A stretch of DNA of 61,097 bases from Rhodocyclaceae bacterium (GCA_036518635.1 DATDMT010000054.1:1-61097); one strand, 5' to 3'. Positions 2,418 to 47,469 are shown, numbered from the stretch's first letter. Translations and numbers: made by a program. Notes: generated by a model from the letters alone, not told the origin.

Positions 2418-3656
2418 ATGAAGAAGACAATCATTGGCGGCCTGCTGGTCGCCCTGCTCGGCAGCTCTGCCGCCTTCGCGGCGGACAGCATCAAGATCGC
2501 CATCACCGGCCCCTTCAGCGGTGGTTCGGCACCCATGGGCGCCTCCATGCGCGACGGTGCCAAGCTGGCGATCAACACCATCAATGCCAAGGGCGGCGTG
2601 GATGTCGGCGGCAAGAAGCTCAAGTTCGAAGTGGTCGAACGCGACGACGAAGCCAAGAACGAACGCGGCGCCCTGATCGCCCAGGAACTGGCGGCGATGA
2701 GCGACCTTTCCGGCGTCATCGGCACGGTGAATACCGGCGTCGTGCTGGCCGGCGACAAGCACCTGCAGGAGAAGGGCATCGTCAAGATCATCACCCCGGC
2801 CGCCGGCTCGGCCTCGATGACCCAGTGGCGCGACGCCAAGGTGCCGAACCTGTCGATCTTCCGCTTCGCCGCCCATGACGGCATCCAGGCGGCGATGGTG
2901 GTGGAGGAGGCGATCAACCGCAAATTCACCAAGGTGGCGATCGTCCATGACGCCACCAACTACGGCGTCTCCGGCCGCAACGACTTGGTGGACCAGATCG
3001 CCAAGCAGGGCAACAAGCTGGAAGTGGTCGCCACCGAGAAGTTCAACATCGGCGACAAGGACATGAGCGCGCAACTGCTGCACGCCAAGTCCGCCGGCGC
3101 CCAGGCGATCCTGATCTGGGGCATTGGCCCGGAACTGGCGGCGGTCTCCAACGGCATGGCCAAGATCGGCATGAAGGTGCCGCTGATCGGCGGCTGGACC
3201 CTGTCGATGGCCAACTACATCGACAACGCCGGCAAGAATGCCGACGGCACGCTGATGCCGCAGACCTTCATCGAGGAAGCGGTAACGCCGCAGACCAAGG
3301 CCTTCATCGAGTCCTATCACAAGACCTACAACGTCACGCGGATTCCCTCGCCGGTGTCCGCCGCCCAGGGCTATGACGCGGTGCTGATCTTCGCCGCGGC
3401 AGTGAAGCAGGCCGGCAGCACCGATTCGAAGAAGATCAAGGAAGCCCTGGAAGACCTGAAGGAGCCGGTGCCGGGCGTGATCGCCACCTGGAACAAGCCC
3501 TTCAGCAAGTGGGATCCGGCCGATGAATCGACCCATGAAGCCTTCCGCCGCGAACAGACGGTGATGGGCATGGTCAAGGACGGCCATGTGACCTTCGCCA
3601 ACGAAGCCGACCGGGCACGCCTGGCCAAGGCTTCCGGCGGCAAGAAGGCCAAGTAA
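2418..3656 (+). CDS. ABC transporter periplasmic substrate-binding protein, Leu/Ile/Val-binding (LivK/LivJ-like) family
   Basis: ATG 2418 sits behind GAAGGAGG. Signal peptide MKKTIIGGLLVALLGSSAAFA; type-I PBP motif IKIAITGPFSGGSAPMG. It is followed by Liv-type permease and ATPase genes. Confidence 0.9.
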   Translation: MKKTIIGGLLVALLGSSAAFAADSIKIAITGPFSGGSAPMGASMRDGAKLAINTINAKGGVDVGGKKLKFEVVERDDEAKNERGALIAQELAAMSDLSGVIGTVNTGVVLAGDKHLQEKGIVKIITPAAGSASMTQWRDAKVPNLSIFRFAAHDGIQAAMVVEEAINRKFTKVAIVHDATNYGVSGRNDLVDQIAKQGNKLEVVATEKFNIGDKDMSAQLLHAKSAGAQAILIWGIGPELAAVSNGMAKIGMKVPLIGGWTLSMANYIDNAGKNADGTLMPQTFIEEAVTPQTKAFIESYHKTYNVTRIPSPVSAAQGYDAVLIFAAAVKQAGSTDSKKIKEALEDLKEPVPGVIATWNKPFSKWDPADESTHEAFRREQTVMGMVKDGHVTFANEADRARLAKASGGKKAK

Positions 3657-7326: not shown

Positions 7327-7812
7327 ATGAGAACAGCATTTCGCAGTGCCCTCGGGGCACTTTGTGCAGTCGCTACCCTGGCGACCGCCGGCGCCGCCGA
7401 GGCGCAACTGATGGACAAGAAGGCGCTGACCCTGGCCGAGGCGCGCAAGGCCATGCAGGCGGCCACGGCCGAGGCCAAGAGCAACGGCTGGAACGTGGTG
7501 ATCGTGGTGGTGGATGACGCCGGCTACCCGCTGACCCTCGACCGCCTCGACAACACCCAGCGCCCCAGCGTGGACATCGCCGTCGGCAAGGCCCGCACCG
7601 CCGCCCTGTTCCGCCGCCCCAGCGCGGCGCTGGAGGACACGATCAACAAGGGCCGTAACGCCTTCCTCTCGGTGGACGGTTATGTGTTCCTGCAAGGCGG
7701 CATCCCGATCGTTGTCGGCGGCGACGTGATCGGCGCGGTGGGCGTCTCCGGGGTCAAGTCCGAGCAGGACGAGCAAGTGGCCAAGGCCGGCGCCGCCGCA
7801 GTCGGCCGCTGA
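7327..7812 (+). CDS. secreted GlcG/HbpS-like (DUF336) heme-binding family protein
   Basis: Signal peptide MRTAFRSALGALCAVATLATAGAAEA. Family motifs VVIVVVDDAGYPL, AVGKARTAALF and GGIPIVVGGDVIGAVGVSG. Confidence 0.8.
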   Translation: MRTAFRSALGALCAVATLATAGAAEAQLMDKKALTLAEARKAMQAATAEAKSNGWNVVIVVVDDAGYPLTLDRLDNTQRPSVDIAVGKARTAALFRRPSAALEDTINKGRNAFLSVDGYVFLQGGIPIVVGGDVIGAVGVSGVKSEQDEQVAKAGAAAVGR

Positions 7813-30636: not shown

Positions 30637-32505
30637 ATGGGAATACTCGAGAACATGTTCGGCGGCGGCCTCAAGGAAGGCCAGGTGGTGGTGGACCAAC
30701 TGACCCTCGACGAATTGCGCGGACAGATCGCCGCCATCAACAAATCCCAGGGCGTGATCGAGTTCAGCCTGGATGGGACGGTGCTCCACGCCAACGAGAA
30801 TTTTCTCGCCGTGCTCGGCTATCGCCTCGATGAAATCAAGGGCAAGCATCACAGCATGTTTGTCGACGGTGCTTACCGGCAGAGCCCGGAATACCGCCAG
30901 TTCTGGGACCGCCTCGGGCGTGGCGAATACGACGCCGGCCAGTACAAGCGGATTGGCAAGGGCGGCCGCGAGGTGTGGATTCAGGCCAGCTACAACCCGA
31001 TCCTGGATAGCCGTAACAAGCCGTTCAAAGTGGTCAAGTACGCCACCGACATCACTACCGAGATGCTGCGCAACGCCGATTCCGCCGGCCAACTGGCGGC
31101 CATCAGCAAGTCGCAGGGGGTCATCGAGTTCACCCTGGATGGCACGGTGCTGAATGCCAACGCAAATTTTCTCGCCGTGCTTGGCTACAGCCTGGATGAG
31201 GTGAAGGGCAAGCACCACAGCCTGTTCGTCGATCCCGCCTACCGCCAGAGCGCGGAATACCGCCAGTTCTGGGAGAAGCTCGGCCGCGGCGAATACGATG
31301 CCGGGCGCTATATGCGTATCGGCAAGGGCGGCCGCGAGGTGTGGATTCAGGCCAGCTACAACCCGATCCTCGATCTCAACGGCCAGCCCTGCAAGGTGGT
31401 CAAGTACGCTACCGACATTACCGCCCAGGTGAATGCAGCCAATGCCCTGCAGCGCACCGTCGACGAAACTCAGGCGATGGTCAATGCGGCGGTGGCCGGC
31501 GACCTGACCAAGCGGATTCCGATGGGCGGCAAGTCTGGCATGCTCGAGGCCCTCTGCGGTGGCGTCAATTCGCTGGTGGACACCATGGCCGGCATCGTCC
31601 GTCAGATTCAATCGGCCGCCGGCGAGGTGCTGACCGGAACCCGCGAAATCGCCAAGGGTAACCAGGACCTGTCGAGCCGGACGGAAGAACAGGCGAGCAG
31701 CCTGGAAGAGACGGCGAGCTCGATGGAGGAACTGAGCGCGACGGTAAAGCAGAACGCCGACAACGCCAAGCAGGCCAACGAGCTGGCGCAGAGATCGAAC
31801 GAGGCCGTGGCGCGCGGCGGCGAATCGGTGAAGCGGGTGGTGGCGACCATGAGCGACATCCAGGACAGCTCGAAGAAGATCGCCGACATCATCGGCGTGA
31901 TCGACAGCATCGCCTTCCAGACCAACATCCTGGCGCTGAACGCGGCAGTGGAAGCGGCGCGAGCCGGCGAGCAGGGCCGCGGCTTCGCCGTGGTGGCGAC
32001 GGAAGTGCGCAACCTGGCGCAGCGCAGCGCCACGGCGGCGAAGGAAATCAAGGAACTGATCTCCGCCTCGGTGGATAAGGTTGAAAGCGGCGCCAAGCAA
32101 GTGGCGCAGGCCGGCACGGCGATGGACGAAGTGGTGACCAGCTTCGGCCAGGTGGCGGTGCTGGTGACCGGCATCACCAATGCCAGCCGCGAGCAGGCGA
32201 GCGGTATCGAGCAAGTGACCAAGGCAGTCAGCCAGATGGACGAAGTCACCCAGCAGAACGCGGCGCTGGTGGAAGAAGCGGCGGCGGCGGCGGAAAGCCT
32301 GGAAGAGCAGGCCAAAAGCCTGGTCGAGGCGGTCAGCCGCTTCGACTTGGGCGAAAGCGGCCAGCAGCTACCGCGGCGCGCCGCCGCTGCTATTCCTGGG
32401 TCGGCCGCCGGCCACTCAGCGGTTCGTCCGCACTCGGCGAACCCGGTTAGGAAAATTTCCGCCCCCCGATTCGCTGCAGCCGAAGACCAGTGGGAAGAGT
32501 TTTGA
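30637..32505 (+). CDS. soluble methyl-accepting chemotaxis protein with two tandem PAS domains, HAMP-like linker, MA domain and C-terminal QWEEF pentapeptide
   Basis: No TM segment seen. Two ~120-aa PAS copies ([33 protein letters not shown]). Signalling hairpin [38 protein letters not shown]. Ends ...AAEDQWEEF. Confidence 0.9.
31660..32315 (+). repeat. 656-bp near-identical segment shared with 34561..35216 (MA-domain coding region)
   Basis: Hand alignment at constant offset 2901 nt shows roughly 25 mismatches in 656 nt, mostly synonymous. Flanking sequence diverges sharply. Confidence 0.85.
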
Positions 32506-32559: not shown

Positions 32560-35394
32560 ATGAGAACGAATCTGCCCGTTACCCAGAACGAAGTGCTCCT
32601 GACGGATCAGACCCTGATCGTCTCAAAGACCGATTTGAAGGGGCGGATTACCTATATCAACCAGGACTTCATCAACATCAGTGGCTTCAGCGAAGCGGAG
32701 CTGATCGGCGAACCGCATAACCTGGTGCGCCACCCGGACATGCCGGAGGAGGCCTTCGCCGACCTGTGGCGCACCCTCAAGGAAGGCCGGCCGTGGACCG
32801 GCTATGTCAAGAATCGCTGCAAGAACGGCGATTACTACTGGGTGCTGGCCAACGCCACGCCGATCTACGAGGGCGGCCAGGTGACTGGCTATATGTCGGT
32901 GCGGCGCAAGGCTTCGCGCGACGTGATCGAACAACTGGATCGGGTCTACCGGCAGTTCCGCGAAAAGAAGCAGGGCAATCTGCAAATCCGTTACGGCCAG
33001 GCGGTCAAGGGCGGCGGCAGTCGACTCGCCGATCTGCGGCTGTCCACCCGGCTCAGCGGCATGCTCGCCATCCTTGGTGTGCTGGTCTTGCTGATGGCGG
33101 GGCTGGGCCTGTACGCCCTGGCGGCGACCAAGGACAACGCCGATGCCTTGTTCCAGCGCCGCTTCGAGCCGATGCGCATGGTCGGCAGGATTCAGAAGCT
33201 GATGGCCGATAATCGCTCGCAGTTGCTATTGGGGGCTCAGCACGATCCCGCCGGGAACCTGGCCAAGACCCATGATCATCCGATCGGCCAGCATACCGAT
33301 GCCGTTGCCGCCAATATCGCCGAGATCACTCAGCTCTGGGAAAGCTACTACGGCTTGATCCGCGCCGAAGAGCACAAGCGGCTCGCCGACGCCTATCTGG
33401 AGTCGCGCAAGCGCTTTGTCGGCGAAGGCCTCAAGCCGGCCTCCGCAGCCTTGGCCGCGGGCGACTATGCGCAAGCCAATGCCCTGATCATCAATAAGGT
33501 AAACCCCTTGTACGTCGAAACGGCGGACAAGGCTGAAGCGCTGTTCAAATACCTGAGTGGGCACGCCAAGGAAGAGTTCGCCGATTCCAACGTGGCCTAC
33601 GAGCGGACGCGCATGGCCTTCGTCGTCATCCTGGCGCTGCTGACCGCTATCGGCGTGTTTGGCGCGGTGCGTCTGCTGGCATCGATCCGCCGGCCGATGG
33701 ATACCGTGCTCGACACCCTGCGCAACGTGACCCAGGGCAATTACTCCAACGAAATCGACATCACCCGCAACGACGAACTGGGCAAGGTGTTGCAGGGCTT
33801 GCAGACCATGCAGACCCGGTTGGGCTTCGAATTGGCCGACTCCAAGCGCGTCGCCGACGAGATGACGCGGGTCAAGATCGCCCTGGATAACGTTAGCACT
33901 GGGGTGATGATCGCGGATGCCAGCCGGACCGTGATCTACGCCAACAAATCGGTGGTCCGCATCCTCAAGGGCGCCGAGGCGGCGATCCGCCAGCAGTTGC
34001 CGAACTTCAATGCCGAGCACATGATCGGCGTCAATATCGATACCTTCCATAAGAATCCGGCCCACCAGGCGAAGCTGCTGGCCACCTTCACCGATCCCTA
34101 CGTCGCCAACCTGCAGATTGCCGACCGCCACCTGCGGGTGACCGCCAGCCCGGTGATCAACGATCGTGGCGAGCGCCTGGGTGCCGTGGCGGAGTGGCTG
34201 GACCGTACCGCCGAAATCAATGTTGAGCGGGAGGTGGAAGGCATCGTCTTTGCCGCCGCCCAGGGCGACTTCACCAAGCGCATCAAAGAAGAGGACAAGG
34301 AAGGCTTCTTCAAATCGCTGGCGGTGGGCATGAACCAGTTGATGACCACCAGCGCCCAAGGCCTTAATGCCGTCGCCGAAGTCCTCGGCGCCCTGGCGCA
34401 GGGGGATTTGACGCGGCAGGTGGATGGCGATTACCAGGGCACCTTCGGTCAACTCAAGGACGACACCAACACCACCGTCGAGCGGCTGAAGGAAGTCGTC
34501 GGCCGCATCCAGGAAGCCACCCAGGCGATCAACACCGCCGCCCAGGAAATCGCCGCCGGCAACCAGGACCTGTCGAGCCGCACGGAAGAACAGGCGAGCA
34601 GCCTGGAAGAGACGGCGAGCTCGATGGAGGAGCTGAGTTCGACGGTAAAGCAGAACGCCGACAACGCCAAGCAGGCCAACGAGCTGGCGCAGAAATCGAA
34701 CGAGGCGGTGGCGCGCGGCGGCGAATCGGTGAAGCGGGTGGTCGCGACTATGAGCGACATCCAAGACAGCTCGAAGAAGATCGCCGACATCATTGGCGTG
34801 ATCGACAGCATCGCCTTCCAGACCAACATCCTGGCGCTGAACGCCGCGGTGGAAGCGGCACGAGCCGGCGAGCAGGGCCGCGGCTTTGCCGTGGTGGCGA
34901 CGGAAGTGCGCAACCTGGCGCAGCGTAGCGCCACGGCGGCGAAGGAAATCAAGGAACTGATCTCCGCCTCGGTGGATAAGGTCGAAAGCGGCGCCAAGCA
35001 AGTGGCGCAGGCCGGCACGGCGATGGACGAAGTGGTGACCAGCTTCGGCCAGGTGGCGGTGCTGGTGACCGGCATCACCAACGCCAGTCGCGAGCAGGCG
35101 AGCGGCATCGAACAAGTGACCAAGGCGGTCAGTCAGATGGACGAAGTCACCCAGCAGAACGCGGCGCTGGTGGAAGAAGCAGCGGCGGCGGCGGAGAGCC
35201 TGGAAGAGCAGGCCAAGGGCCTGGTGGATGCGGTCAGCCAGTTCAACCTGGGCAGAACCCAGCAAAAGCCGGCACTGCGTTCGATGGCCGCGCTGCCGAG
35301 CCAGAAGCCGGCCCAGGCGCGCCCGGCCAGCCAGATCAAGAAGATTCCGCCGCCCCATCTCGCCAACTCCGAAGACGAGTGGGAAGAGTTCTAA
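32560..35394 (+). CDS. multi-sensor methyl-accepting chemotaxis protein: Aer-like N-terminal PAS, TM, periplasmic helical domain, TM, HAMP, second PAS, HAMP, MA domain, EWEEF pentapeptide
   Basis: The N-terminus [72 protein letters not shown] resembles the E. coli Aer FAD-PAS. TMs [23 protein letters not shown] and [19 protein letters not shown]. The MA domain is identical in type to that of the preceding gene. Confidence 0.9.
34561..35216 (+). repeat. second copy of the 656-bp MA-domain repeat (see 31660..32315)
   Basis: Same hand alignment as for 31660..32315. Confidence 0.85.
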
Positions 35395-38080: not shown

Positions 38081-38386
38081 ATGCAAACCAATCTCGTCAA
38101 GGCCGACGGTAAGGCGACGATTCGCCTGACCGGCCGCTTCGACTTCAATTCGCACCGTGAATTCCGCGAGTGCGTCGATGGTGCCCTGCAGGACGCCGAT
38201 GCCAAGGAAGTGGTGGTAGACCTCGCTGCGGTGGATTACCTCGACAGCTCGGCCCTCGGCATGCTGCTGATGTTGCGCGACAAGGCGCGGGCCGCCGGCA
38301 AGACGACCACCCTGTCCAACTGCCGCGGCGCCGTGAAGCAGGTGTTGGATATCGCGAATTTCGGCAAACTGTTTCAGATCGCCTGA
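38081..38386 (+). CDS. STAS-domain anti-sigma-factor antagonist-like protein (HsbA/SpoIIAA class)
   Basis: 101 aa. Contains VVDLAAVDYLDSSALGMLLMLRDKA (conserved phosphorylatable Ser context DSSALG). RBS GGAGAG lies upstream. Confidence 0.85.
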   Translation: MQTNLVKADGKATIRLTGRFDFNSHREFRECVDGALQDADAKEVVVDLAAVDYLDSSALGMLLMLRDKARAAGKTTTLSNCRGAVKQVLDIANFGKLFQIA

Positions 38387-38424
38387 ATCGCCCCGCTCGC
38401 AGACCACTGCGCCGCCGAGGTGGC

Positions 38425-40026
38425 ATGAACTACCTGCTGGCAACCGACCAGGCCGAAGCGCTGACCGGCCTCGTTTCCCGCCTGTCCGCGCTCGGCTACC
38501 AGCAGGGGCCGGACGCTGGCGTGATGCTGGCCTGTTTCCGCGATCCCGGCGAGCTGGAGCATGCGCTGGCGGCGGCGCCGGGAACCTCCTTCGTACTCGG
38601 CATTTATCTGCCGGGGCAGCAGCAGCAGGCCGGCTCGATGCTGGCCGCCGGCGCAGATGCCTGCCTGCCCAGCGATGCGAGCAACGCCTTGCTGGAATCC
38701 CAACTCCTCGCCATTGCCCGGCGCCACGCGGCGCGGGATCGGCAGGACCTGCGCATCGCCCGGCATGAGCAGGAGCAGGATGCCGCCTACCTGCTGCTGG
38801 AGCGGGTGCTGAGCCAGTACCGGCACGAGGCGGCGGATATTTCATTCAAAAGCCTGGGGGTGTCGCCGTCCGGCGGTGACATCTTCCTGGCGGTACGTAC
38901 TCCGTCTGCGGTGCTGCACCTGTTGTTCGTGGACGGCCCGGGCACGTCGATGTTGCGTTCCCTGGATATCCTGCCGGTGCTGCCGGTGTTTCACAGCATG
39001 AGCGAGAAAGGCTTCAGCCTGGATTCCATCGCCCGCGAGATGAACGACAAGGCGCGCCTGCTGTTGCCCGAGGGCCGCCATATCGCCTGCACCCTGGCAG
39101 CGGTGGATTTCCGCGACCCGCTGATTCAGTTCTGGAACGGCGGTAATCCACGGCCGATCGTGGTCGATCGGCAAGGACGGTTGGTGTTCGAGTGTCCGAC
39201 GGTGCACCCGCCGCTCGGCGCGGTAGCGCATGCGGCCTTCTGCGGCACGTTGAATGCCTACGCCTTTCAGGAGGATGACGGTCTGATCCTCTGCTCGGAT
39301 GGCTTGATCGGCGGCGAATCACCCCCCGCACTCGGCTACTCCGGGGTGCGTGCCGCACTCGCCGCCGCCGGCGATCCAGAGTCTCGGGCGCAGGCGGTGT
39401 TCGATGCCTTCCGCCGCCGGATGGATGGCGCTTCCCCCGCGGACGATGCTTCGGTGTTGGCCCTGCATTGCCGCAAGGCCGCACTGGCGGTGCGCAGTAC
39501 GGAAGCCTCGCCGATGGTCGATACCGCCGGTGCCCATTGGCGCGTCACCCTGCGTCTTGGCGCCGAAGAATTGCGCCGCGTGGACGCGGTGCCGGCCTTG
39601 CTGGGCGTCGCCAGCCAGATCGAGACCGCACGGATGCCCAGCGGCGAGCTGTTCGTGGTGCTCTCCGAGTTGTTCAACAACGCCCTGGACCATGGTCTGT
39701 TGAAACTGGATTCCGCCCTGAAGGCCGGGCCGGATGGCATGGCGGATTACCTCGACGAACGCTCGCTGCGCCTTGCGGCATTGCGGCATGGGGTCGTCGA
39801 AATGTCCGTGGAGGCAATCACCCACAATGGCAAGCATGCGATCCGGGTGCACTGCCGAGATAGTGGCGAGGGCTTCGACCATCGCGCCATGGGGTTGGAT
39901 GCCGTCGAGGACAGCGAACGCCCCTATGGTCGCGGCCTGATGCTGCTGCGCAGGCTCGCCGTGGCCATCGAATTCAACGACCCTGGCAACGAAGTCACGG
40001 TCGTCATGGGGACGCCGGATTCCTAG
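38425..40026 (+). CDS. three-domain partner-switch enzyme: degenerate receiver + SpoIIE/PP2C phosphatase + GHKL anti-sigma-type Ser kinase (HsbR/CrsR-like)
   Basis: Start at MNYLLATDQ (in frame within track ORF 38170..40026). PP2C motifs SGGDIFLAV, LFVDGPGTS, ILCSDGL and ADDASVLALH. Kinase motifs LSELFNNALDHG, RDSGEGF and YGRGLMLL. By hand alignment the N-terminal ~100 aa are receiver-like but lack the DD pocket and the phospho-Asp. Confidence 0.8.
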   Translation: MNYLLATDQAEALTGLVSRLSALGYQQGPDAGVMLACFRDPGELEHALAAAPGTSFVLGIYLPGQQQQAGSMLAAGADACLPSDASNALLESQLLAIARRHAARDRQDLRIARHEQEQDAAYLLLERVLSQYRHEAADISFKSLGVSPSGGDIFLAVRTPSAVLHLLFVDGPGTSMLRSLDILPVLPVFHSMSEKGFSLDSIAREMNDKARLLLPEGRHIACTLAAVDFRDPLIQFWNGGNPRPIVVDRQGRLVFECPTVHPPLGAVAHAAFCGTLNAYAFQEDDGLILCSDGLIGGESPPALGYSGVRAALAAAGDPESRAQAVFDAFRRRMDGASPADDASVLALHCRKAALAVRSTEASPMVDTAGAHWRVTLRLGAEELRRVDAVPALLGVASQIETARMPSGELFVVLSELFNNALDHGLLKLDSALKAGPDGMADYLDERSLRLAALRHGVVEMSVEAITHNGKHAIRVHCRDSGEGFDHRAMGLDAVEDSERPYGRGLMLLRRLAVAIEFNDPGNEVTVVMGTPDS

Positions 40027-40291
40027 GGTCTGTTCTCATTCAGTCGGCGGATCGCGTTGCGCCCCAATCTGGATGGATGCAAGGCGGAGGGTGCTGGCAA
40101 TGGTTGTTCCATTGCCGAGCCCGACAACGCCGCAGACGCCGGATTGGGGCGCAATCCGAAGGGAAGGGGTCGGATCGGGTGCATTGCGGCGTTGCTTCCT
40201 CCTCGTTGGGGATCGCCCAACCACGTCGGTCGCGCCTTGCACTGCGCCCGATCCGACCCCTTCGCGACCGTCGCCTGAATGAGAACAGACC
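40027..40291. repeat. 265-nt composite palindromic element, copy 1
   Basis: Perfect 17-bp terminal inverted repeats (40027-40043 / 40275-40291). Two internal ~100-nt hairpin modules with 13-14-bp stems. Core blocks are identical to those of the copy at 46650..46914. No credible ORF. Confidence 0.85.
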
Positions 40292-40444: not shown

Positions 40445-41407
40445 ATGTCCGAACTACTGAAGAACATCGACGCACGCACCAAGCTGGCTGGCACCAACAA
40501 ACTGGAAATTCTGCTGTTCTCCCTCGGGGTGGACGGCCGTACCGGGCGTCGCGAGACCTTCGGCATCAACGTATTCAAGGTGCGCGAAGTGATGCGCACG
40601 CCGCAGATCACTGCGGCACCGGATATGCCCGGCTCGGTCAAGGGCATGGTCAGCCTGCGCGGCGTGCTGGTCCCCGTGGTGGACCTGGCGGAATACGTCG
40701 GCATGCAGCCGGAAAGCCCGCGCGACATCATGATCGTCACCGAATACGCGGGCCACACCCAGGGCTTCCTGGTCGAGGGCGTGGATACGATTCTGCGGCT
40801 CGACTGGGCGCAGATGCGGGTGCCGCCGGAAATGCTGGTGTCCAACCTGGGCGGCCTGGTGACCGCCGTCACCGAACTGCCGGATTCGCGCCTGGTGATG
40901 ATGCTCGACGTCGAGCGCATCCTGGCCGAAACCACCAACTACGACGACGATCTGCTGTTTGCCGACCTGCCGCCGATCGGCCAGGAGGGCTTGACCATCG
41001 TCTATGCCGACGACTCGTCGGTGGCCCGCAACCAGATCGAGCGCACCTTGCAGGCCCTCGGCGTGCGCGGTATCAGTGCCGTCAATGGCCGTGCTGCCTG
41101 GGATGAATTGCAGCGCATCGCCGCCCATGCCGACACCACCGGGCGCAAGGTCAAGGACATCGTCAATCTGATTTTGACCGACGTGGAAATGCCGGAGATG
41201 GACGGCTACATCCTGACCAAGCACGTCAAGTCCGATCCGCGCTTCGCCGGTATCCCGATCCTGATGCATTCGTCCCTGTCCTCCATGTCCAATCAGCAGT
41301 TGGGTCGCTCGGTGGGCGTGGACGAATATGTTTCCAAGTTCGAACCGCAGCGCTTGGCAGAAACGCTGACTCGCCTGTTGCGCGCCTCCGGCGCCATCAA
41401 GGCATAG
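40445..41407 (+). CDS. cheV: chemotaxis protein CheV (CheW-like domain + receiver)
   Basis: Contains LEILLFSLG...FGINVFKVREVMRTP...MVSLRGVLVPVVDL. C-terminal REC IVYADDSSVARN...LILTDVEMPEMDG. Confidence 0.9.
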   Translation: MSELLKNIDARTKLAGTNKLEILLFSLGVDGRTGRRETFGINVFKVREVMRTPQITAAPDMPGSVKGMVSLRGVLVPVVDLAEYVGMQPESPRDIMIVTEYAGHTQGFLVEGVDTILRLDWAQMRVPPEMLVSNLGGLVTAVTELPDSRLVMMLDVERILAETTNYDDDLLFADLPPIGQEGLTIVYADDSSVARNQIERTLQALGVRGISAVNGRAAWDELQRIAAHADTTGRKVKDIVNLILTDVEMPEMDGYILTKHVKSDPRFAGIPILMHSSLSSMSNQQLGRSVGVDEYVSKFEPQRLAETLTRLLRASGAIKA

Positions 41408-41423: not shown

Positions 41424-42392
41424 ATGACAAGCAACTCGATGGTCACTACTTCCTCGCAGAATTCCCTGCTCGACACGGTCGACGCGCGGACCAAGCTGGC
41501 CGGCTCGAACCGCATGGAAATCCTGCTGTTCGAACTGGGTACCCACGAAACCTTCGGCATCAACGTCTTCAAGGTGCGCGAAGTCAGCCGCACCCCCAAC
41601 ATCACCAAGGCGCCGAACATGCCGCAGGGGGTCGAGGGCTTGATCAGCCTGCGCGGCAATGTGATCCCGGTGGTCTCCCTGTGCCGTGTCATGGGCCTGG
41701 ATGATGCGCCGGCCGGCCTCGGCCAATCGATGATGGTGACCGAATACAGCAAGCGCACCCTCGGCTTTCTGGTGCATAGCGTAGACCGCATCATCCGCGT
41801 CGAATGGGACAAGGTGCGTGCCCCCGAGGCCGTGACCAGCGGCTCCCATGCCTACATCACGGCGATTACCGAACTCGCCGACGGCAAGCTGGTGTCCATC
41901 GTCGACGTCGAGCAGATTCTCGCCAACACCTTCGGCGAGGCCCTGGTCGGCCAGATCGAGCCGATCCGCGCCGCCGGCGATCTCGATGTGTTCTTCGTCG
42001 ACGACTCTGCCGTGGCCCGCAAGAAGATTGCCGAGGTGCTGGAGAAGCTCGGCGTCCGCCACAAGCATGCGCAGAACGGCATGGAGGCCTGGACCCGCCT
42101 GCAGGGCATGGCCAACGCCGCCCAGGCCGCCGGCCGCAGCGTTCAGGACGAGTTGAACCTGATCCTGGTCGATGCCGAGATGCCCGAGATGGACGGCTAC
42201 GTGCTGACCAAGAACATCAAATCCGATGCCCGCTTCGACGGTATCCCCGTCGTCATGCATTCCTCCCTTTCGTCCGAGGCCAACCGCGCCATGGGCAAGA
42301 GCGTCGGCGTCGATTCCTACGTCGCCAAGTTCGATGCCGATGCCTTGGCCGATACCCTGCGTCCCCTGCTGATCAAGTCCCAAAGGGACTGA
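41424..42392 (+). CDS. cheV: chemotaxis protein CheV (second paralog)
   Basis: Contains MEILLFELGTHETFGINVFKVREVSRTP...LISLRGNVIPVVSL. REC VFFVDDSAVARK...LILVDAEMPEMDG. Confidence 0.9.
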   Translation: MTSNSMVTTSSQNSLLDTVDARTKLAGSNRMEILLFELGTHETFGINVFKVREVSRTPNITKAPNMPQGVEGLISLRGNVIPVVSLCRVMGLDDAPAGLGQSMMVTEYSKRTLGFLVHSVDRIIRVEWDKVRAPEAVTSGSHAYITAITELADGKLVSIVDVEQILANTFGEALVGQIEPIRAAGDLDVFFVDDSAVARKKIAEVLEKLGVRHKHAQNGMEAWTRLQGMANAAQAAGRSVQDELNLILVDAEMPEMDGYVLTKNIKSDARFDGIPVVMHSSLSSEANRAMGKSVGVDSYVAKFDADALADTLRPLLIKSQRD

Positions 42393-45617: not shown

Positions 45618-45693
<76 letters not shown>

Positions 45694-45849: not shown

Positions 45850-46650
45850 ATGTCGCTCCGTCGTCGCCTGATCCTTCTTGTCATGCTAGCCCTCGTCGGT
45901 GACGCCTATGCCCAGGATGTCGAATTGCAGGACGTGACGCGCAATCCGATGATTGGCAACTACAAGGGGTATGCCGAATTCAAAATGGCCCACTACGATA
46001 CGGCGCGGGCGATCTGGGAGGCGCTGGACGGCATCGACTACGCGGAAGGGGCGTTCAACCTGGGCATCCTCTACGAGGAGGGCCTCGGTGTCGCCAAGGA
46101 CATGTCCCGGGCGCTGGCCTACTACGAACGCGCCGCCAAGCTGGGCGGCGTGCGTGCCGCCTTCCGCCTCGGCAAGATTTACTGGTTCGGCACCCCGAGC
46201 GTGCCGCAGGACAAAGACAAGGGCCGTCAATTCCTGACCCTCGCCGCCCAGGGCGGCGACAGCGAGGCCGCCAGCTACCTGAATGCCGCTGCCCCGGTTG
46301 GCAGCCCGCTGGCGGCGGCCGATGCGGCCGAAGCCAAGGGCCAGCTTGCTGAAGCCGCGAGCATTCTGCTGGCGGCGGCAAGTGCCGGCGACCGGGCGGC
46401 GCAGACGCGCATTGCCTGGTACTACGAAGCCGGCAAGGGGGTGACGCGGGATCTGGCGGCGGCGGCGCGCTGGTTCGGCCAGGCGGCTGCGGCCGGTGAT
46501 GGCGAGGCGATGTATGCCCTGGCGGTGATGCATCGGACTGGCGCCGGGATGCCTGAGGATCACGCCAAGTCGGCGGACTGGCTGCGCCGCAGCGCGGCCG
46601 CCGGCTATGTGCCGGCCCAGCGCGAACTCAAACAGGCCGCGGCGAAGTAG
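45850..46650 (+). CDS. secreted Sel1-like (SLR/TPR-family) repeat protein
   Basis: Signal peptide MSLRRRLILLVMLALVGDAYA. Repeated A..NLG.LY..G.GV.KD...A..WY..AA..G units. Confidence 0.85.
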   Translation: MSLRRRLILLVMLALVGDAYAQDVELQDVTRNPMIGNYKGYAEFKMAHYDTARAIWEALDGIDYAEGAFNLGILYEEGLGVAKDMSRALAYYERAAKLGGVRAAFRLGKIYWFGTPSVPQDKDKGRQFLTLAAQGGDSEAASYLNAAAPVGSPLAAADAAEAKGQLAEAASILLAAASAGDRAAQTRIAWYYEAGKGVTRDLAAAARWFGQAAAAGDGEAMYALAVMHRTGAGMPEDHAKSADWLRRSAAAGYVPAQRELKQAAAK

Positions 46651-46914
46651 AGCCTATTCCAGTAGGGATCGTGTGCCGCGCAGTGGGATGGCGGGATGCA
46701 GTGCAAGGCGCCTGGCGCGCGGTGCAGTCATCTGCACAAGCGACGGGCAACGCCGCAATGCGCCCGCCATCTCGCTGCCCTCCGGGTTGAGGCCAGGGGC
46801 GGCGTCTGCGGCGTTGCAGCCCTTGCCCGTAGATGACTACAGGCAGCGGACTGCGCCTTGCATCCATCCACCCCTGGCCTCAACGCGGCGCACGAGCCCT
46901 ACTGGAATAGGCTC
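46650..46914. repeat. 265-nt composite palindromic element, copy 2 (inverted relative to copy 1)
   Basis: Perfect 18-bp terminal inverted repeats (46650-46667 / 46897-46914). It fills the whole spacer between two convergent stop codons. Four core blocks are identical to copy 1 in reverse complement. Confidence 0.85.
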
Positions 46915-47469
46915 TTAGCCGCCAGTGCGGCTGCGGTCCCACAGCACGTCGCCCTGGCCGGCGCTGAGATTCAGCCAGCGCGCCAGCACGAACAGCAGGT
47001 CGGACAAGCGATTCACATATTGCCGGGCAGTATCGGAGACCGGACTGTCCCGATGCAGGGTGATCACGCTGCGCTCGGCGCGGCGGCTGACCGCCCGCGC
47101 CAGGTGGCAAACCGCGGCGCTGCGTTCGCCGCCGGGCAGGATGAATTCCTTCAGCGGTTGCAACTGGCTGTTGTAGCGGTCGATGGCCTGCTCCAGATAG
47201 GCCGGCTGGCCGGTGCCGAGCAGGGCGCTGCCGGGAATGCACAGCTCGCCGCCGAGATCGAACAGATCGTGCTGAATGGTGAGCAGCAGGCGGGTGACGT
47301 CCAGCGGCAGGGATTCGCACAACAGCAGGCCGATCAGCGAGTTCAACTCGTCGATGTCGCCCATCGCGGCGACCCGCGGCGCGTCCTTGTCGATCCGTGT
47401 ACCGTCGCCCAAGCCGGTGGTTCCGGCGTCGCCGGTACGGGTATAAATCTTCGAAAGTCGGTGGCCCAT
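46915..47469 (-). CDS. ATP:cob(I)alamin adenosyltransferase, PduO type
   Basis: Starts MGHRLSKIYTRTGDAGTTGLGDGTRIDKDAPRVAAMGDIDELNSLIG, the typical PduO/MMAB N-terminus. Confidence 0.9.
   Translation of the reverse strand: MGHRLSKIYTRTGDAGTTGLGDGTRIDKDAPRVAAMGDIDELNSLIGLLLCESLPLDVTRLLLTIQHDLFDLGGELCIPGSALLGTGQPAYLEQAIDRYNSQLQPLKEFILPGGERSAAVCHLARAVSRRAERSVITLHRDSPVSDTARQYVNRLSDLLFVLARWLNLSAGQGDVLWDRSRTGG

Follow-up and report, generated by a model that had tools for sequence, protein, structure and literature searches.

How can two intergenic sequences in the same stretch of DNA be identical in a few short blocks, differ in most other positions and still form complementary stems? This question is raised by a 265-nucleotide (nt) element that fills the gap between two convergent genes in 61,097 nt of sequence from a Rhodocyclaceae bacterium (DATDMT010000054.1). 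This whole stretch, at its full length, is referred to here as the window. The element (copy 2) lies at positions 46650-46914, and a second 265-nt element (copy 1), belonging to a different subfamily, lies at 40027-40291; the two copies are mutually inverted. An initial annotation made from the sequence alone had described both copies, four core blocks shared between them and the exact fit of copy 2 between two convergent stop codons, and re-reading of the sequence agreed with each of these descriptions. Global alignment of copy 2 against copy 1 in inverted form showed identity in all four blocks (each an exact reverse-complement match) and mostly different sequence elsewhere, with stems that differ between the copies and are complementary within each of them. 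The results presented below indicate that these elements are likely to be transposons and that each carries a pair of hairpins with a conserved fold.

Inverted repeats, target duplications and mobility

Each element in the window is a dimer of two inward-facing modules of approximately 105 nt. To collect relatives, representative genomes were scanned with the pattern TGCAAGGCG-N(32-44)-CAACGCCGCA, and at least 120 loci were recovered. Both window copies and most relatives, among them all such dimers and the single-module elements of Streptomyces, Firmicutes, Planctomycetes and Nitrosomonas, are bounded by inverted repeats of 25-42 nt that differ between subfamilies. The outer 8-9 nt of these repeats follow a loose consensus, GGGCCTGTY, and in a hand-collected set position 1 is a G in 30 of 30 termini. 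In copy 2, the terminal inverted repeats are found at 46650-46680 (GAGCCTATTCCAGTAGGGATCGTGTGCCGCG) and 46884-46914 (CGCGGCGCACGAGCCCTACTGGAATAGGCTC), both read on the + strand, and an inverted-repeat search placed the arms at 46649-46680 and 46884-46915 (32 nt, 94% complementary). From one end to the other, the element thus consists of a terminal inverted repeat, a module, a centre, an inverted module and the second terminal inverted repeat. The terminal repeat of copy 1 begins with GGTCTGTTCTCATTCAG.

Direct repeats of the form TA, TNA or NTAN flank 30 of 62 elements, as compared to 4.5 +/- 1.8 when the flanks were swapped between elements. These duplications are CTAG (11 elements), TA (9), TTA (5), TAA (2) and TCA, TGA and GTAC (one each), and the nine that read TTA, TAA, TCA or TGA are non-palindromic. 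At the window copies the flanks match imperfectly, with TA to the left and TTA to the right of copy 2, and TA to the left and TT to the right of copy 1.

Evidence for mobility comes from two genera. A Sulfuritalea genome (locus L068) carries a copy that is 94% identical to copy 1 and has the same terminal repeats, situated between different genes. In Streptomyces, one subfamily is present in up to 8 copies on a single plasmid, and one of its sites was found both filled and empty. Specifically, at the racemase/LysR junction of plasmid NZ_CP109206.1 the sequence reads ggcTA[GGGGGTGTCG...CGACACCCCC]TGgggg, with an element of 184 nt, and three related Streptomyces plasmids have the uninterrupted sequence ggcTAgggg. 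Neither window copy could be matched to an empty site; Denitratisoma, Sulfuritalea and the closest metagenomic relatives do not share the gene order, and a search for close homologues of the gene neighbouring copy 1 found none. Elements of this family are 160-330 nt in length, shorter than the limit of approximately 600 bp for MITE-like elements, are filled by their hairpins and have no coding capacity, as the open reading frames (ORFs) that run across them are spurious and recur through the repeat itself.

Inverted repeats, TA, TNA and CTAG duplications, dispersed copies, a site in filled and empty form and the absence of coding capacity are together the marks of a MITE (miniature inverted-repeat transposable element). 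We therefore consider it likely that the feature is a non-autonomous DNA transposon of this kind and that its position at stop codons is an effect of its target. Copies 1 and 2 are two subfamilies of one MITE superfamily. The initial annotation had opposed structure to transposition, and this opposition does not stand: the terminal inverted repeats, the duplications, the copies at unrelated sites and the filled/empty polymorphism are found in elements that are also structured. It had also named the case in which the family would turn out to be a catalogued repetitive extragenic palindromic (REP) element, bacterial interspersed mosaic element (BIME) or MITE; in kind the family is indeed a MITE, although no catalogue entry for it was found.

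Three points weigh against this identification. First, approximately half of the elements lack a clean duplication, and these include the right end of both window copies. Second, the palindromic CTAG flanks could alternatively be counted as part of a longer terminal repeat. Third, no autonomous partner with matching ends was found by searching all loci for inverted-repeat pairs 600-3000 nt apart, by plasmid BLAST with the terminal repeat or by browsing one plasmid end.

The target effect is most easily seen at the window copies and at the empty Streptomyces site. The Sel1-repeat ORF (45850-46650, + strand) ends in a TAG codon at 46648-46650 that is made up of the flanking TA and the first G of copy 2, such that this G is common to the element and the stop. 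On the other side, the TAA stop (46915-46917, - strand) of the convergent cob(I)alamin adenosyltransferase ORF (46915-47469, - strand) directly adjoins the right end of the element, and copy 2 occupies the whole gap between the two genes. Copy 1 comes directly after the TAG stop (40024-40026) of a SpoIIE/HATPase gene (38170-40026, + strand) and precedes a CheW-REC gene on the same strand. At the empty Streptomyces site, the racemase gene's own TAG lies inside CTAG, and after insertion the stop is formed by TA and the first G of the element. Three further PGAP-annotated Streptomyces cases have the same TAG arrangement, one of them (fabG) on the opposite strand. Among 66 elements, 36 have one end no more than 5 nt away from the stop of an ORF with at least 80 codons, and 27 of the 44 stops of this kind are TAG, a count that has no random-position control and that is inflated by long spurious ORFs in GC-rich DNA.

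Outside stop codons, TA-centred tetranucleotides are rare in GC-rich genomes, and insertions within genes are harmful. Insertion occurs at TA-centred targets (CTAG, TTAA, TNA) with duplication of TA, TNA or CTAG, after which the terminal G of the element restores a TAG. Copies abut stop codons because this G rebuilds the TAG, and an element with a G-first tip that targets TA or CTAG will accumulate at stops because TA targets elsewhere are rare and genic insertions are harmful. A reporter test for terminator or insulator activity had been proposed; we attribute the adjacency to the target site and do not regard it as evidence of either activity. A promoter and terminator scan of the elements found neither.

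Based on the pattern of targets and duplications and on the tip sequence, we predict that the elements may be mobilized in trans by a DDE transposase of the IS5/PIF-Harbinger type. Elements of this PHIS (PIF/Harbinger-ISL2EU-IS5) superfamily are expected, in part from ISfinder, to have duplications of 2-3 bp (TA, TWA/TNA) or 4 bp (YTAR), and the duplications observed here (2-3 bp TA and TNA, and 4 bp) fit the pattern of the IS5 family and of PIF/Harbinger, its relatives in eukaryotes. The tip GGGCCTGT is similar to the tips of PIF/Tourist elements, which read GGCC..GT.., and to those of IS5/IS903, which read GG.... Published duplications for PHIS/IS5-type elements are 0, 2 or 3 bp in length (PMC12730594). 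Pfam analysis of 150 neighbouring ORFs returned 166 families, with ABC_tran the most frequent (4) and every other listed family occurring twice, and none was a transposase, recombinase or reverse transcriptase. Clustering of the neighbouring ORFs all-against-all, followed by Pfam, likewise produced only everyday families and no associated gene.

By its defining features the element is a MITE, nearest to the Tourist-like, IS5-derived MITEs and functionally reminiscent of the Correia elements. It resembles the former in being short and non-coding, in its terminal inverted repeats and insertion polymorphism and in its TA-centred duplications, either 2-3 bp (TA, TTA/TAA, TNA) or CTAG as in IS5 itself. 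It differs from them in its internal hairpin of approximately 105 nt with a core and shape kept across phyla, a feature that is not known to have been described in either group of MITEs. Correia (NEMIS) elements of Neisseria are similarly intergenic MITEs that have terminal inverted repeats and duplicate TA, and the hairpins formed by their transcripts influence how mRNA is processed. However, they are 100-155 bp in length, are limited to Neisseria, have one conserved sequence without covarying stems, contain an IHF site and show no sequence similarity to the family described here, which spans many phyla.

Fold and covariation of the hairpin module

The minimum-free-energy fold of each window element is Y-shaped, with an outer stem of approximately 31 bp and two long hairpins. 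Folded as RNA, copy 2 reaches -189 kcal/mol, as compared to -121 +/- 5 for shuffled sequences (z = -13.1), and the z-score with DNA parameters is -12.3. The two hairpins of copy 2 are module A at 46678-46781 (sense +; 71.4 bits, E = 8e-19), with TGCAAGGCG at 46702-46710 and CAACGCCGCA at 46748-46757, and module B at 46783-46886 (sense -; 93.7 bits, E = 2e-25), with TGCAAGGCG at 46854-46862 and CAACGCCGCA at 46807-46816, both on the - strand. They are joined at the three-way junction by a central mini-palindrome, CCCTCCGGG (46778-46786), the counterpart of which in copy 1 is TCCGAAGGGA. The modules of copy 1 lie at 40054-40158 (sense +, 98.1 bits) and 40160-40265 (sense -, 69.1 bits). These scores are from a covariance model that was built, as the initial annotation had proposed, and scanned over the window and its relatives. 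In the window it identified exactly four modules, two per element (69-98 bits on the sense strand, at most 15.6 bits antisense), and among the relatives it found inverted partners at many loci. The short core motifs are similarly concentrated: TGCAAGGCG occurs five times in the window (1.55 expected), in all cases except site 7691 inside the two elements, and CAACGCCGCA occurs four times (0.31 expected), always inside them.

At the centre of the module is a core in which TGC pairs with GCA and GGCG pairs with CGCC, with conserved bulges of AA on the 5' side and CAA on the 3' side. The core is flanked on the outside by a variable stem of approximately 20 bp in which a single base bulges on the 5' side. 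Inward of the core, a stem of approximately 6 bp leads through a 3x2 internal loop to a terminal hairpin of approximately 8 bp, and both the inner stem and the terminal hairpin are variable. When 122 modules were folded individually, they had this common architecture and unrelated stem sequences. The stems described in the initial annotation as perfectly paired do pair in the minimum-free-energy fold. Its conserved unpaired blocks are conserved as stated, but they are for the most part not unpaired, as they pair with each other within the module through TGC:GCA and GGCG:CGCC.

Covariation was assessed with two alignments. In a gapless alignment of 38 sequences fitted to no structure, 77.5% of the cells pair as compared to 56.0% after shuffling, a value reached in 0 of 500 shuffles; with the partners slid, only 36-43% pair, and changes on both sides are seen in 33 of 40 pairs. 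In a model-fitted alignment of 124 distinct modules, 85.6% of the cells pair (53.7% shuffled) and double changes are seen in 36 of 40 pairs. The strand on which the fold is maintained can be read from the numbers of G.T and A.C. Under scoring that favours neither, 149 G.T and 34 A.C were counted on the sense strand of the outer stem, and 72 and 37, respectively, in the region beyond it. Model scores are similarly asymmetric, at 69-105 bits for the sense strand and at most 16 bits for the antisense strand.

Recent changes follow the same rule. Copy 1 and its 94% identical Sulfuritalea relative differ by 15 substitutions, of which 14 or all 15 preserve pairing. Six of these make up three double compensatory changes, seven keep the pair via G.U and one is located in a loop; the single substitution that was scored as breaking a pair probably pairs with C36>T once the register is shifted. 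Based on these results, the fold is under strong, strand-specific constraint and its architecture is kept across phyla by compensatory change. Selection on a folded nucleic acid, as had been proposed for the two copies, is borne out by covariation far above the shuffled and slid controls, by the excess of G.T over A.C on one strand and by substitutions that preserve the structure.

MITE interiors normally drift freely. What is unusual here is an interior core sequence and fold that are kept, with abundant covariation, in the MITEs of many phyla. The retention of this core and fold in elements of Proteobacteria, Actinobacteria, Firmicutes, Planctomycetes and others implies a conserved reader of the structure. 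Once identified, this reader could reveal how very short transposons pair their ends or are replicated, or could equally reveal a new mobile RNA module, and the covariance model makes the question directly testable in model organisms such as Streptomyces. The family also explains a class of very stable intergenic palindromes that are flush with stop codons in GC-rich genomes. Such elements should be recognized by genome annotators because they rebuild TAG stops and spawn spurious ORFs.

Possible roles of the module

What the hairpin serves can be approached from its orientation. A cruciform requires both strands to fold, and a function in the 3' untranslated region of host genes predicts a sense bias. 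Relative to local GC skew, module orientations are divided 37 to 39. According to crude gene calls, single-module elements are found in 11 convergent, 8 tandem-sense, 5 tandem-antisense and 5 divergent contexts, and the five annotated Streptomyces copies comprise 3 convergent, 2 tandem-antisense and 0 tandem-sense cases. A wider orientation test using the difference in strand energy was confounded by the intrinsic sense of the module and by the crude gene calls. Orientation is random with respect to host genes and GC skew, yet folding is confined to one strand of the module, and on this basis the fold may serve the element itself. We tentatively propose that the module might be a cis-acting signal that is read on one strand during propagation of the element itself, as opposed to a service to neighbouring genes. 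What is read may be single-stranded DNA or else a transcript, either of the element or of a parent insertion sequence, and effects on host mRNA 3' ends, where a hairpin directly follows a stop codon, would be by-products.

Three further points count against the explanation as a whole. The tests of orientation relative to genes are based on small numbers and in part on crude gene calls. In the 22 partner modules that were found by the model alone, only approximately AAGGCG and AACGCCG are kept and the rest varies. Finally, we know of no need for a strand-specific hairpin in DDE cut-and-paste transposition, and to our knowledge a role for such a module is without precedent in that transposase family.

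As to its nature, the hairpin could possibly be an undescribed and widespread structured motif with a specific partner (a conserved protein, or a transposition machinery that reads the folded strand), or else a new functional RNA, possibly a ribozyme, carried across phyla on a MITE vehicle. If the partner reading is true, recognition by structure, as at integron attC sites, in REP-RAYT systems and at the ends of IS608, would be connected to a transposon that has terminal inverted repeats and target duplications.

A serious rival, though one we regard as rather unlikely, is a role in host RNA, whereby a co-transcribed hairpin in the 3' untranslated region protects, processes or terminates the upstream mRNA and the dimer offers a sense module from either side. 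REP, ERIC and Correia elements have been shown to act on mRNA in such ways. The stems are G.U-compatible on one strand, the elements stand immediately after stop codons and dimers are always ordered "+ then -", so that a transcript entering from either side meets a sense module first. A further hint is found in the window itself: for copy 1, located between two + strand genes, the + strand fold is more stable by 20 kcal/mol (-184.3 kcal/mol, as compared to -163.9 on the - strand), and copy 2, which lies between convergent genes, folds equally well on both (-189.0 kcal/mol). However, the 8 tandem-sense and 5 tandem-antisense single-module elements, based on the crude gene calls, show no clear sense bias, and none of the annotated Streptomyces copies is in tandem-sense orientation. 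In addition, the elements have no U-tract terminator and no promoter, and exonuclease blocking alone would not require a conserved core sequence.

It is doubtful, though it would account for several features at once, that the module was inherited from the ends of an autonomous insertion sequence, as a leader for transposase translation or a subterminal region for transposase binding, and that the MITEs carry it passively. Such an origin would explain a strand specificity intrinsic to the element, the random orientation relative to the host, the occurrence in many phyla and the fact that modules at both ends face inwards, and would be consistent with the better conservation of one module per dimer (90-105 bits, as compared to 28-70 bits for its partner). 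Against this, no autonomous copy bearing the module was present among more than 120 module-seeded loci, and the substitutions between two MITE copies are themselves structure-preserving.

Perfect stems could also be produced without selection on the fold if the arms of a palindrome are homogenized by mismatch correction or template switching. Long inverted repeats can evolve in concert, and both arms of each stem here are nearly perfect. We consider this explanation improbable, as it does not account for G.T outnumbering A.C by 4:1 on one strand or for the conserved bulges, the core and an architecture that is the same across phyla. More improbable still is the reading of the module as a structured RNA gene in its own right, for example a riboswitch, ribozyme or small RNA, that merely happens to be present in several copies. 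Deep covariation and an internal-loop core conserved across phyla are typical of functional RNAs, and its absence from Rfam would make this one new, but the modules always occur within elements that have inverted repeats and duplications, there is no conserved gene neighbour, promoter or terminator, and copies number in the tens per genome in random orientation.

Least probable of all is a REP/BIME (REPIN) identity, with palindromic units in alternating orientation moved as single-stranded DNA hairpins by a single-copy RAYT (HUH Y1) transposase: the elements are extragenic, multi-copy inverted pairs of hairpins with conserved bulges and their single-strand specificity fits, but the units are approximately 105 nt and not 20-40 nt, lack a general GTAG or CGTC tag and are accompanied by the terminal inverted repeats and TA/TNA duplications that REPs do not have, and no Y1 transposase is encoded among the 150 neighbouring ORFs. 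The resemblance to REP/BIME and REPIN-RAYT systems extends to mismatched or bulged hairpins that are read on single-stranded DNA and to long genomic persistence. The module core, AAGGCG...CGCCGCA following GGAT, also resembles the E. coli REP consensus, GTAG GCC GGAT AAGGCG TTCA CGCCGCATCC GGC; this likeness could be a coincidence in GC-rich sequence or a distant relationship. REP units are 20-40 nt in length with a GTAG or CGTC tag (PMC3733652). A GTAG is present in the terminal repeat of copy 2 by chance only and is absent from most relatives, and REP/BIME identity was rejected on unit size, tag, inverted repeats and duplications.

Integron attC sites were also compared. As in the family described here, structure is conserved in attC while sequence varies, and its conserved extrahelical bases define the active strand. 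Unlike these elements, which are solitary and lie between unrelated genes, attC sites are found in cassette arrays beside an integrase and have RYYYAAC...GTTRRRY boxes. Stem ends reading GTTGC...GCAAC occur in some Betaproteobacteria only, in an order opposite to that of attC, and inverted repeats with duplications are also present here. An attC identity was rejected, as there are no arrays and the boxes are absent or reversed in order. Readings of the core as a kink-turn (K-turn), attC, dif/Xer, signal recognition particle-like or known small-ribozyme motif were dropped by inspection (misfit of strand order or consensus, no Rfam match).

Distribution of the family and other features of the window

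The matches listed from the pattern scan include, among the Proteobacteria, Comamonadaceae, Nitrosomonas, Sulfuricellaceae, Sulfuritalea and several Gammaproteobacteria and Deltaproteobacteria; many Streptomyces (Actinobacteria); Lachnospiraceae, Anaerobium and Sporomusa (Firmicutes); and Planctomycetes, Acidobacteria, Verrucomicrobia, Omnitrophota and a Flavobacteriales genome. The 19-nt core is invariant in loci L001-L120 because the scan demanded those bases. Beside many proteobacterial matches, the covariance model identified a second, inverted module 1-4 nt away. Single-module elements were found in Streptomyces, Firmicutes, Planctomycetes and Nitrosomonas.

The family had been described as not assignable to anything known, and database searches agree. 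With Rfam 15 at gathering and E-value thresholds, the only match in the window was a tRNA, with chance microRNA-type hairpins of approximately 20 bits as the best sub-threshold hits, and eight relatives had no match at the module. Literature searches by sequence string and by keyword found no description of this element family, and plasmid BLAST with copy 2 gave no match.

Several variants of the element were observed. In a Comamonadaceae subfamily (L073, L089, L097, L103, L008, L004 and L109), the second arm is a hairpin and not an inverted module, and at the tip of this hairpin the two core blocks have exchanged places (GCTTGCA-TGGGC-ATGA-GCCCA-TGCGGCG). A different conserved motif, TTTTGGGCTGCGACTGCGTC...GTCTCGCTCCAAAA, is shared by the second arms of elements from Omnitrophota and other non-proteobacterial groups (L075, approximately 7560-7590; L104, approximately 3190-3220; L096, minus strand), which suggests that this MITE frame also accommodates another type of conserved module. 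L088 and L114 have approximately 66 nt of extra insertion in the linker, and L113 has a slipped core, CAACGCCGCAACGCCGCAACGC. Local rearrangements of the module include a tandem duplication 421 nt apart in L112 (5857 and 6278) and a duplicated 5' half-module upstream of 7393 in L052. L011 has identical module copies at both ends of a 3143-nt contig (27-84 and 3051-3108), which is likely circular or a collapsed assembly. Modules with the exact core were also present in 14 IMG/VR viral contigs (L126-L139), the last of which has two in the same orientation, 2.4 kb apart.

In the window, a tRNA-Ala gene (anticodon CGC, 45618-45693) is located approximately 950 nt upstream of copy 2, between a chemotaxis kinase region and the Sel1-repeat gene. 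Recent tandem paralogues are also present. Two methyl-accepting chemotaxis protein genes (31633-32066 and 34534-34967) share 300-nt stretches that are 94-97% identical, and the adjacent CheW-REC (CheV-like) genes at 40445-41407 and 41424-42392 are 73-76% identical. The chemoreceptor signalling domain occurs in five copies across the window.

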